Source of the DNA: an archaeon
GTDB lineage: Archaea > Iainarchaeota > Iainarchaeia > Iainarchaeales > JAAZKV01
DNA: 64,000 nt
NCBI GenBank assembly: GCA_041650735.1
Contig: JBAZKP010000001.1
Span: 163,076-227,075, forward strand
Reading direction: 5' to 3'
The notes under the pieces are model-generated. The model had not been told where the DNA came from, did not search any database, and saw only the letters and a list, made by a program, of their open reading frames with translations. Positions 19,352 through 58,247 of the stretch are shown piece after piece. The translations under genes were made by a program, and so were the position numbers. Each line of letters opens with the position of its first letter. Position 1 is the first letter of the stretch.

Positions 19352-20511
19352 TTCTGCTCTGGTGCCTGCTAGGAGCAGGAATAGGGCTCATTGCAGGTCT
19401 TATTCCTGGATTACATTCAAACAATATAGCTGTTATTTTGGCAGCAACCCCTTTTTTTGGGAAAGAAATAACCGCATTCATGCTAAGCCTCTGCATAACA
19501 CAAGCATTTACTGAATTCATCCCAGCAGTATTTATCGGCGCTCCGGGAGAAAATACTTTTGAAAGTATTCTTCCCGCGCACAGAATGCTAATGCAAGGAA
19601 AAGCGTTTGAAGCAATCTGCCTGACAACAACTGGAGCCCTCACAGCAGTAATCGCAGGCTCACTCCTCACCCCCCTATTTTTTATGTTCATAGAACAAAA
19701 TTCCCAACAAATAATTGCAATAACGCCAATAGTGCTAATTGCCGCACTAATAATGTTTATTGCGGGAGAACAAACAATAAAGAAAAAACTTGTTGTGATA
19801 TTTGTAATAATTGCAGCAGCAAGCCAGGGAATATTATTCAAAGAACAAGTATTCCCTTTAATTACAGGCTACTTTGGGATAGCAGGAACACTTTATTCAT
19901 TAAAAGAAAAACCGTTTAATGCAAAACAAAACACTAATGCTGAAATAAATCCAAAAATAATCCTGGATTCATTAATAGGAATAACTGGCGGAGCGATAGT
20001 ATCCATAATGCCGGGAATAGGCAGCAATACTGCTGCAGGAATAATTAACCTCTTTAGAAAAACAAAAAGCACTGAAAAATACCTGGCCATGCTAGGCGCA
20101 ATAAATGCATCAAATTTCTTTTTCTCCTACGCAACAATGTTAGCACTGGATAAAGCAAGAAATGGGACCATGCTGGCACTACAAGAGAAAATATTTCACA
20201 CAACGGATACACTTTTTTTAGGCACAATAATAATGGTAACTTCTGCAGGAATAGGTGGCTTAGCAGCAATAATTCTTGCAAAAAAAGCGATTATCCTTTT
20301 TGAAGAAAAAGTCACGCAAAAAATGTCAATAGCAACAATAATCCTCATGATAATACTAGTAGGTTTTTTCAATGGAATAACCGGGCTTACAGCAATGGTA
20401 TTTGCAACATCACTAGGCTTATTTACAATAATATCTGGAATAAGAAGAAGCACCTGTATGTCCTCTCTTATAGTACCAGTACTGTTTTTCTATGTTTTTA
20501 CACTAATTTAA
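19348..20511 (+). CDS. TctA-like (DUF112/COG1784-type) polytopic membrane protein
   Basis: Two copies of the G-x-hydrophobic-PG-hydrophobic-(G/H)-S-N signature (GLIPGLHSNN and SIMPGIGSNTAAG) in a ~10-TM protein. Confidence 0.45.
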   Translation: MILLWCLLGAGIGLIAGLIPGLHSNNIAVILAATPFFGKEITAFMLSLCITQAFTEFIPAVFIGAPGENTFESILPAHRMLMQGKAFEAICLTTTGALTAVIAGSLLTPLFFMFIEQNSQQIIAITPIVLIAALIMFIAGEQTIKKKLVVIFVIIAAASQGILFKEQVFPLITGYFGIAGTLYSLKEKPFNAKQNTNAEINPKIILDSLIGITGGAIVSIMPGIGSNTAAGIINLFRKTKSTEKYLAMLGAINASNFFFSYATMLALDKARNGTMLALQEKIFHTTDTLFLGTIIMVTSAGIGGLAAIILAKKAIILFEEKVTQKMSIATIILMIILVGFFNGITGLTAMVFATSLGLFTIISGIRRSTCMSSLIVPVLFFYVFTLI

Positions 20512-55371: not shown

Positions 55372-55436
55372 ACAAAAAAAGCAGGTTTTTAAACAATACT
55401 TGGAACGAGATAATTATTGGGGCAAATAACGGTTCT

Positions 55437-55642
55437 GCGATCGTTGTCTAGTGGTTATGATTCGTCCTTGCCAGAACCTTGTTAAGGTTCGCGACCTAGC
55501 AAAGCAAAAGCTTTGCAAGGCATAGTAAAATGCAATGCATTTTACCATGAAGAATTTGCCCATTGCTAAAGCAATGGACAGAAAGCGAACGAAACAGGTT
55601 TGCAGCTAGGACGGGGCCCGGGTTCAATTCCCGGCGGTCGCA
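55437..55642 (+). tRNA. tRNA-Gly(GCC) with 134-nt intron at 37/38
   Basis: Hand fold: acceptor GCGAUCG/CGGUCGC, D arm GUCU-AGUGGUUA-UGAU, anticodon stem CGUCC/GGACG, loop UUGCCA[intron]A, T arm CCGGG-UUCAAUU-CCCGG, discriminator A. Intron is 55474-55607. BHB-like: UUGC/GCAG helix, bulges CAG and CUA, outer helix AACCU/AGGUU. Confidence 0.85.
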
Positions 55643-58020: not shown

Positions 58021-58095
58021 AGTGGCAAAGCCACTATCGCGCTATTGATAAATAGCGCCACGGTGTGAATCGCACCGTCCCGCCGAAACGGGACA
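58021..58095 (+). other. GC-rich array of four perfect hairpins abutting the 5' end of tRNA-Gly(UCC) (structured leader or unknown small RNA)
   Basis: GUGGC-aaa-GCCAC; GCGCUAUU-gaua-AAUAGCGC; GGUGUG-aau-CGCACC; GUCCCG-ccgaaa-CGGGAC. A single A then precedes tRNA position 1. TATA-like TTTAAAAAA lies ~30 nt upstream of 58021. Confidence 0.4.
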
Positions 58096-58247
58096 GCGTC
58101 TGTGATGTAATGGTAGCATAAAAGCCTTCCATCGGCCTTACTAAGGCCGGCGAAAGTATTTGCCCTTTCTACGAAAGGACAGAAAACTACGATGGTTGAA
58201 AAATCAAATGCTAGCTTTTTGTCGGGGTTCAAATCCCCGCGGGCGCA
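58096..58247 (+). tRNA. tRNA-Gly(UCC) with 81-nt intron (boundaries inferred)
   Basis: Hand fold: acceptor GCGUCUG/CGGGCGC (two G-U pairs), D arm AUGU-AAUGGUA-GCAU, anticodon stem AAAGC/GCUUU, loop CUUCCA[intron]A, T arm CGGGG-UUCAAAU-CCCCG, discriminator A. Intron taken as 58132-58212. The central BHB helix is poor (2 of 4 pairs). Confidence 0.75.

Follow-up and report, generated by a model that had tools for sequence, protein, structure and literature searches.

Most archaeal tRNA introns are shorter than ~50 nt, and the canonical ones lie between positions 37 and 38 of the tRNA, where the precursor forms a bulge-helix-bulge (BHB) motif and is processed by EndA and RtcB. Here we describe a tRNA-Gly(GCC) gene at positions 55437-55642, on the forward strand, of the window, the whole 64,000-nt stretch of DNA analysed (C1:163076-227075 of the assembly of a small iainarchaeotal genome (Diapherotrites, DPANN) labeled G000; 984 kb, 34% G+C, 88% complete). 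Its 134-nt intron has the canonical position, two 3-nt bulges, the 4-bp helix and the outer helix, in a host with an alpha4-like EndA and RtcB, but departs from canonical introns in being several times the usual length, in carrying an extra U opposite the 5' bulge, and in having a body made of dispersed sequence modules. We consider it likely, with a probability of roughly 70%, that this is a canonical BHB intron built from lineage-specific mobile hairpin modules, denoted R1 and M2, and that the intron body is not a purpose-built RNA. Other G and L numbers below denote the related genomes and loci compared, and coordinates without a contig prefix are those of the window.

The nearest published parallel is the transposition of introns in Thermoproteales, where tRNAs that differ in identity carry near-identical introns (Fujishima et al. 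2010, cited through PMC4090602). In the same account, these introns were gained after speciation by a mechanism thought to act at the DNA level. Here too, highly similar introns occupy differing tRNAs (88% identity over 111 nt with the intron of tRNA-Trp, and at least 11 isoacceptors overall). However, whereas the Thermoproteales introns lie at non-canonical sites as well and go together with a broad-specificity EndA, those described here are confined to the canonical site, with starts at gene nt 35-38, in a host with an alpha4-like enzyme. They also contain a defined two-hairpin module that is found, in addition, at the ends of tRNA and RNase P RNA genes and behind open reading frames (ORFs), in the latter case with duplications of 32-38 nt.

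Two other kinds of system invite comparison. Like the bacterial repetitive extragenic palindromic sequences and interspersed mosaic elements (REP/BIME), the Rickettsia palindromic elements and the archaeal miniature inverted-repeat transposable elements, R1 is short, multi-copy, hairpin-forming, non-autonomous and restricted to one lineage. It differs from all of these in lacking clear terminal inverted repeats or an associated transposase, in preferring the exact ends of stable RNAs, and in the unusual length of its target duplications. The box C/D guide RNA intron of euryarchaeal pre-tRNA-Trp is likewise long (~100 nt), structured and canonically positioned, but in the present case the same module recurs in many tRNAs and outside introns. 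We found no published description of R1 or M2 repeats, or of long modular introns, in Diapherotrites.

A long, hairpin-rich intron in tRNA-Gly(GCC)

The gene was recovered with the Rfam tRNA model, which scores 55437-55642 at 35.3 bits on the 321-nt neighbourhood (gathering score 29) and places a 136-nt insertion after the anticodon, and with ARAGORN, which calls tRNA-Gly(gcc) once its intron search is switched on; an Rfam scan of the whole window with fast default filters and a default ARAGORN run both missed it. Paired by hand, the exons form a 7-bp acceptor stem (G1-C72 to G7-C66), a 3-bp D stem, a 5-bp anticodon stem (C27-G43 to C31-G39) and a 5-bp T stem (CCGGG/CCCGG), with the anticodon loop UUGCCAA and discriminator A. 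The 5' exon (55437-55473; nt 1-37, anticodon GCC at 55470-55472) ends in A37 (55473) and matches its intronless counterparts in G001, G019 and G009 at 100% identity, and the 3' exon (55608-55642; nt 38-73), located with Rfam and by a joined-exon search of relatives, begins with A38 (55608). The gap between the two exon matches is the intron (55474-55607), at canonical position 37/38, and its splice boundaries, 55473/55474 and 55607/55608, are fixed because seven intronless relatives in the genus carry an uninterrupted 72-nt gene. The initial annotation had described a normally folding tRNA-Gly(GCC) with an intron of this extent, long for an archaeal tRNA; both programs, the pair-by-pair stems and the identical intronless orthologues bear out the gene, and the seven congeners its intron boundaries. 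No other tRNA-Gly(GCC) gene was found in the G000 assembly (88% complete). Most of the 39 tRNA genes of G000 are preceded, at about -30, by a CTTTWAAAA-type box, and likeness to this type suggests a putative TATA-like box, GGTTTTTAAACA, at 55384-55395 on the same strand as the gene, ~47 nt 5' of +1.

A hairpin census of the intron returned the four perfect hairpins reported in the initial annotation: hairpin 1 (GAACCUU-GUU-AAGGUUC, 7 bp, 55474-55490), hairpin 2 (7 bp, 55499-55516), hairpin 3 (9 bp, 55525-55545) and hairpin 4 (7 bp, 55560-55577). Only 1 of 5000 dinucleotide-preserving shuffles contained at least four such hairpins (mean ~0.06), and the four hairpins in 134 nt compare with a genome average of 0.70 per kb. 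The density of perfect hairpins is 14 per kb in tRNA introns, ~25 times that in ORFs (0.57), and 1.7 in other intergenic DNA.

The BHB was checked base by base, with the result that the helices and bulges assigned to it earlier all stand. The central H helix pairs UUGC with GCAG (U55468.G55605, U55469-A55604, G55470-C55603 and C55471-G55602), the two bulges are CAG (55472-55474) and CUA (55606-55608), 3 nt each, and the outer helix h' pairs AACCU (55475-55479) with AGGUU (55596-55600). The 3' end of the intron (55591-55607) thereby contains the AGGUU strand of h', the GCAG strand of H (55602-55605) and the first two bulge nucleotides, CU. The one deviation from the canonical hBHBh' arrangement is the unpaired extra U55601 opposite the 5' bulge, because of which "near-canonical" is the right term.

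Two repeat modules make up the intron body

Sequence comparison indicates that the intron is a composite in which an M2 module has been inserted into an R1 module. R1 is a 64-nt two-hairpin unit with invariant CGCGAAAGAAUUUG / CAGAAAGCGA, laid out as hairpin 1 (NNNCCUU-RYU-AAGGNNN), CGCGA, AAGAAUUUG, a variable hairpin and (AC)AGARA, with a tail that often continues with GCGAR, pairing back to YUCGC. In tRNA-Gly(GCC), a match to the R1 covariance model identifies the 5' part of R1 at 55474-55494, consisting of hairpin 1 and the conserved CGCGA, the 5' strand of the hairpin doubling as the h' strand of the BHB. The 3' part lies at 55550-55590 (R1 model match C1:218601-218666) and comprises AAGAAUUUG, hairpin 4, ACAGAAA and GCGAAC, the last forming a third helix, P3, with GUUCGC (55488-55493). 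M2 (55495-55549) occupies the space between CGCGA and AAGAAUUUG and contains two hairpins (stems 55499-55516 and 55525-55545), each set in a 3-bp outer clamp. Since M2 sits inserted in R1, hairpins 1 and 4 belong to R1 and hairpins 2 and 3 to M2.

Base pairing in R1 was assessed by aligning 39 copies to a covariance model built from seven copies; in this alignment, which is itself fitted to the model, 96.4% of the cells are paired, against 34-52% in slid controls. Double changes were observed in 16 of the 18 R1 pairs, and all seven pairs of the hairpin-1 stem covary. P3 is likewise represented by compensatory variants, namely CUCGC/GCGAG, UUCGC/GCGAA and CUGGC/GCCAG, with UCCGC/GUGGA recognized by eye in L028.

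Copies of both modules are dispersed in the host genome. A BLAST search of the intron against G000 aligned its nt 1-111 with the tRNA-Trp(CCA) intron at 88% identity and returned shorter relatives in the introns of tRNA-Leu(CAA), tRNA-Gly(UCC) and a tRNA on contig C6, as well as two intergenic copies, on C3 and C15. The 55-nt M2 lies between CGCGA and AAGAAUUUG in Gly(GCC), in Trp(CCA), in the G014 intron and in the Gly(UCC) intron of another genus (L031), and at a different point of R1 in the intron of the C6 tRNA (Glu-CUC); an nhmmer profile located further copies in the leader of a tRNA-Met gene and in the intergenic regions C3:79442-79492 and C5:872-925. The Gly(GCC) and Trp(CCA) introns of G000 have identical M2 stems, but for hairpins 1 and 4 and the tail the nearest counterpart is the orthologous intron of G014. 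Such a mosaic of Trp-like M2 and G014-like R1 parts suggests that copies have exchanged sequence; published work reports homologous recombination in the Iainarchaeota lineage (PMC5905446).

Intron turnover at the tRNA-Gly(GCC) locus

The locus was compared in 17 genomes by searching relatives with the joined exons. Seven congeners (G001, G009, G011, G013, G015, G018 and G019) have no intron, their 72-nt gene being 96-100% identical to the joined exons; in nine others, introns of 31, 69, 72, 80, 84, 85, 87, 87 and 127 nt interrupt these exons at an identical position. For the most part, the bodies of the introns are unrelated, and what most of them have in common is limited to the final 7-8 nt (YUGCARYU), which base-pair with the anticodon loop. 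The initial annotation had made the reading of the hairpins depend on whether orthologous introns retain them, and the answer is mostly negative, with seven congeners lacking the intron altogether and the four-hairpin form retained in G014 alone. The G014 intron is 91% identical to that of G000, and most of the differences are compensatory changes within hairpins 2 and 3. Other introns of the locus are filled with hairpins whose sequences are unrelated.

On a tree inferred by maximum likelihood from the neighbouring, syntenic surface-protein gene, the 17 genomes require at least six changes of intron state, no fewer than under random labeling. The sister of G000 is the intronless G018 (support 96), and that of G014 is the intronless G015 (support 100, very short branches). 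In G008, a second copy of the Gly(GCC) 5' exon and intron start (L069, G008:C45:2300-3000) had the appearance of a partial gene duplication; because it lies across a run of N, we regard it as a scaffolding artefact.

Distribution and genomic context of R1

In one Iainarchaeota family, 33 of 36 genomes matched the R1 model, with 1-12 copies per genome. Among other families of the order, 1 of 24 genomes (G047) gave matches, all of them weak, and within the genus the R1 model found no copy in some genomes, such as G001, G002, G009 and G015. An exact-motif scan retrieved R1 from 34 metagenome contigs and from no viral contig. The contexts were surveyed for 61 R1 profile hits, many of which are orthologues, so that the counts do not represent independent events. 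The majority, 42, lie in tRNA introns, all in the sense orientation and all starting at gene nt 35-38, and they involve at least 11 isoacceptors: Gly-GCC, Gly-UCC, Gly-CCC, Trp, Asp, Glu-CUC, Glu-UUC, Arg-CCU, Leu-UAA, Leu-CAA and Met. Six further hits are inverted and located 1-2 nt upstream of a tRNA, three are in sense 1 nt downstream of one, and a single hit comes directly after the RNase P RNA, with a T run behind it. Wherever R1 is linked to a tRNA, its hairpin-1 end is turned toward that tRNA.

At one locus (L032 in G026:C6, 1501-1700), a tRNA-Ala lies between two outward-facing R1-like copies, inverted upstream and sense downstream, whose tRNA-proximal arms, AAGGUU and AGCCUU, could pair as a leader-trailer stem. 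R1 was also considered as a promoter and rejected, the CTTTWAAAA box of the G000 tRNA genes being present on neither of its strands.

Probable signatures of DNA-level insertion

Four independent R1 copies outside introns are bracketed by direct repeats of 32-38 nt, each repeat corresponding to the 3' end of the neighbouring gene. Behind a 2-hydroxyacid dehydrogenase ORF of G000 (C3:773-870, with a variant at C15:3150-3280), the last 34 nt of the ORF are duplicated and the stop codon lies inside the R1 tail; at L025 (G003), the last 36 nt of a tRNA-Leu are duplicated, and at L125 and L141 the duplications are ORF ends with their stop codons and measure 38 and 32 nt, respectively. The C3 target is single-copy and free of R1 in the five relatives aligned. 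Two loci, Gly(GCC) and C3, exist in both filled and empty form. We know of no transposase class that generates duplications of 32-38 nt. In the 3' part of R1 introns, no remnants of a duplicated 5' exon were seen.

Side by side with these sites, we noted that the C3 and C15 regions are two diverged versions of one locus within a single assembly, suggestive of strain heterogeneity or a paralogous region. Besides L025, G003 has a second and more complex duplicated locus, L147 (G003:C4:33050-33750), where two copies of a 66-nt segment, both starting with the R1-tail-like CAGAGAACCA, enclose an R1 copy.

Candidate mobilizing enzymes were sought among the genes of the same genomes. A reverse transcriptase (RVT_1) and a Y1 transposase (Y1_Tnp) were rejected as partners of R1, being present in 5 and 4 of 22 congeners, respectively, and neither in G000. 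Cas1 occurs in 3 of 38 family genomes, including G000 and G003, the two genomes with bracketed R1 copies, a co-occurrence that we treat as a lead rather than a finding. In G000, Cas1 (410 aa, C1:16316-17548) is encoded in a casposon of ~9 kb outside the window (C1:10673-19667), together with a family-B DNA polymerase (855 aa, C1:11863-14430). The casposon has 60-bp terminal inverted repeats that are 90% identical (C1:10673-10731 and 19609-19667) and adjoins the 3' end of tRNA-Gln(UUG) (C1:19678-19750); its own apparent target duplication, judged by eye, is A/T-rich and ~12-14 bp long. No CRISPR array was found in the G000 assembly.

A doubtful but specific possibility is that R1 is an undescribed small mobile element of Iainarchaeota, inserted into DNA with a target duplication of ~35 bp, possibly by a Cas1-family integrase acting in trans, and that its conserved folded core lets it survive exactly at RNase P, RNase Z and EndA cut sites. 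If so, new archaeal tRNA introns would have in R1 a source open to direct observation, the leader and trailer copies being precursors of the intron copies.

Several observations weigh against the view that the intron is made of mobile modules. No candidate mobilizing enzyme among those examined (RVT_1, Y1_Tnp and Cas1) tracks R1, and flanking duplications are seen neither at the intron copies nor at the tRNA-abutting copies; because the intron copies lack them, the route into introns may differ from that into intergenic sites. The tree behind the turnover estimate comes from one linked gene and is not a species tree. In addition, ~20 unpaired or wobble positions of R1 are invariant across two genera while the stems covary freely, and these positions include CGCGAAAGAAUUUG, CAGAAAGCGA, one U.G pair and a recurrent C.A mismatch. 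Because purely selfish filler would not obviously keep such positions, the R1 module may have a function of its own.

A possible RNA-level role for R1

The alternative that survives best is accordingly one in which R1, and the intron with it, is a functional RNA domain placed at the boundaries of stable-RNA segments, namely where the 5' exon ends and at the 3' ends of tRNA and RNase P RNA, as a cis-acting processing or end-marking element, a protein-binding platform or an unrecognized ribozyme. We hold this to be unlikely, if still to be reckoned with. It would account for the invariance, in two genera, of the single-stranded motif, the U.G pair and the C.A mismatch next to the covariation of 16 of 18 stem pairs, for the compensatory changes in P3, and for the exact spacing of 0-2 nt to tRNA ends together with the sense orientation of 42 of 42 intron copies. 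Two genera, moreover, share the introns with R1 in Gly(UCC), Glu(CUC), Trp and Asp. However, the copies upstream of tRNAs are antisense and would therefore yield a different RNA, and at the Gly(GCC) locus R1 is dispensable, seven congeners being intronless and others having unrelated introns. These two facts and the lack of R1 hits in some genomes of the genus (G001, G002, G009 and G015) argue against an essential role. Nor is G.U favored over A.C at variable stem positions (8 versus 14, counts dominated by recurrent conserved sites and hence no decisive measure of RNA-level against DNA-level selection), and the Rfam search and inspection by eye found no known ribozyme, riboswitch or K-turn pattern.

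Apart from tRNA, no Rfam family matched, every other hit having E > 0.01 and lying far below the gathering score. The conserved internal loop of R1 was compared by eye with a K-turn, loop E and the hairpin-ribozyme loop A, all of which were rejected in the absence of the required G.A pairs and, for the ribozyme loop, of G+1.

Predicted folding and the fate of the intron

When the cloverleaf, the H helix and open bulges are enforced, the BHB form of the precursor is predicted at -81.4 kcal/mol and the hairpin-1 form at -75.4. The best constrained fold contains the AACCU-AGGUU and GUUCGC-GCGAAC pairs, with hairpins 2-4 on a junction, and in computed folds of the free intron, linear or circular, hairpin 1 forms. 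The initial annotation had proposed a conformational switch between hairpin 1 and the BHB; the two do compete for the AACCU strand, but a regulatory switch is not supported, the BHB being favored by ~6 kcal/mol. Given that preference, and the formation of hairpin 1 in the free intron, the change is, according to these predictions, better seen as refolding after excision. The alpha4 EndA is held to need a strict BHB (PMC5829648), and the rod formed by AACCU/AGGUU and GUUCGC/GCGAAC therefore probably keeps the 134-nt insert spliceable. The perfect local hairpins, for their part, may be tolerated or selected as keeping a long insert from pairing with the exons.

A dedicated function for the Gly(GCC) intron is unlikely. 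Archaeal introns are circularized, and at least one long intron, that of tRNA-Trp in Haloferax, encodes a guide RNA; the intron could by analogy be a stable, probably circular RNA with a trans-acting function, for which hairpin 1 versus BHB would be a regulatory switch. The very stable fold (z = -6.9) and the genuine competition for the AACCU strand speak for this idea, which we nevertheless rate as very improbable. The intron is not conserved at the locus, its body consists of generic repeats, and the BHB form is predicted to prevail in the pre-tRNA. A box C/D guide was specifically rejected, since 55474-55607 contains neither a C box (RUGAUGA) nor a D box (CUGA), the nearest string being AUGAAGA. 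The function at this locus that the initial annotation had suggested for the structured intron is thus not upheld, the hairpins being copies of two modules that also occur in other introns, leaders, trailers and intergenic sites.

Marginally less probable still is that the hairpins are neutral palindromic filler made locally, for instance by template switching during replication, with no element moving between sites. Stems that are almost entirely Watson-Crick, with A.C as common as G.U, fit palindrome maintenance at the DNA level, and the hairpins of unrelated sequence in other introns of the locus are compatible with it, but local origin accounts neither for 88% identical intron sequence in different tRNA genes, nor for a non-palindromic conserved motif common to more than 60 copies, nor for empty and filled sites with target duplications. 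Finally, that the gene is an unspliced pseudogene broken by an insertion has only the unusual insert length in its favor and can be set aside, given 100% conserved exons, an intact BHB, the presence of EndA and RtcB, and the status of this gene as the sole Gly(GCC) gene found in an 88%-complete assembly.

Returning to an intron built from mobile modules, we propose that in the pre-tRNA the first bases of the intron, AACCU, would pair with AGGUU near its 3' end, and GUUCGC with GCGAAC, the three remaining hairpins projecting from the resulting rod. The alpha4-like EndA would cut in both bulges and RtcB would join the exons, whereupon the released intron could refold with hairpin 1. R1 and M2 would settle in the discarded parts of stable-RNA transcripts, that is, introns, leaders and trailers, and occasionally behind protein genes, with copying or exchange from one such site to another taking place in the DNA.

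Splicing genes and other tRNA genes of the host

Profile matches identified a single EndA catalytic domain in G000 (PF01974, 90.7 bits, C5:46873-47133), within a 180-aa frame that has the size of an alpha4 enzyme, and RtcB (PF01139, 499 bits, C6:40109-41419). Introns interrupt 17 of the 39 credible tRNA genes of G000, and 11 of these introns are 68-136 nt long. All introns predicted by ARAGORN occupy the canonical site immediately 3' of the anticodon or a position adjoining it, which fits a strict alpha4 EndA (PMC5829648). Two ARAGORN calls were revised: the gene labeled tRNA-Arg(tct) at C6:2-210 has the anticodon loop UUCUCA and is therefore Glu-CUC, and a 743-nt "tRNA-Ile" with a 650-nt intron (C9:9710-10452) is a false positive.

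The window contains a second R1-bearing gene, tRNA-Gly(UCC) (58096-58247, forward strand; Rfam tRNA, 47.9 bits), in whose 80-nt intron an uninterrupted R1 (70.9 bits, C1:221207-221267) takes up the first 61 nt (58132-58192). The 5' leader of this gene (58030-58095) consists of three back-to-back hairpins, GCGCTATTGATAAATAGCGC, CACGGTGTGAATCGCACCGT and CCCGCCGAAACGGG, reaching +1, and on this evidence leaders in G000 are hairpin-built too. A different module is present in the intron of tRNA-Leu(UAA) (C6:17225-17378), where GAAAAAGAAAAGAG, which mirrors the purine arm exactly, comes after the hairpin UUUUUCUUUUCUC-UGC-GAGAAAAGAAAAA; the Cys(GCA) and Ser(UGA) introns contain polypyrimidine hairpins of a similar kind.

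Implications

The origin of archaeal, and ultimately eukaryotic, tRNA introns is still open, and the sole documented case of their recent spread, in Thermoproteales, has no known vehicle. Standard tRNA finders can miss intron-bearing genes such as the one described here. The iainarchaeotal system supplies sites in both filled and empty form, a candidate vehicle, and testable substrates for an EndA of the alpha4 type, which must cope with introns of up to ~136 nt. Within one genus, one tRNA gene with identical exons may lack an intron, carry a short one, or carry a long one built from defined repeat modules.

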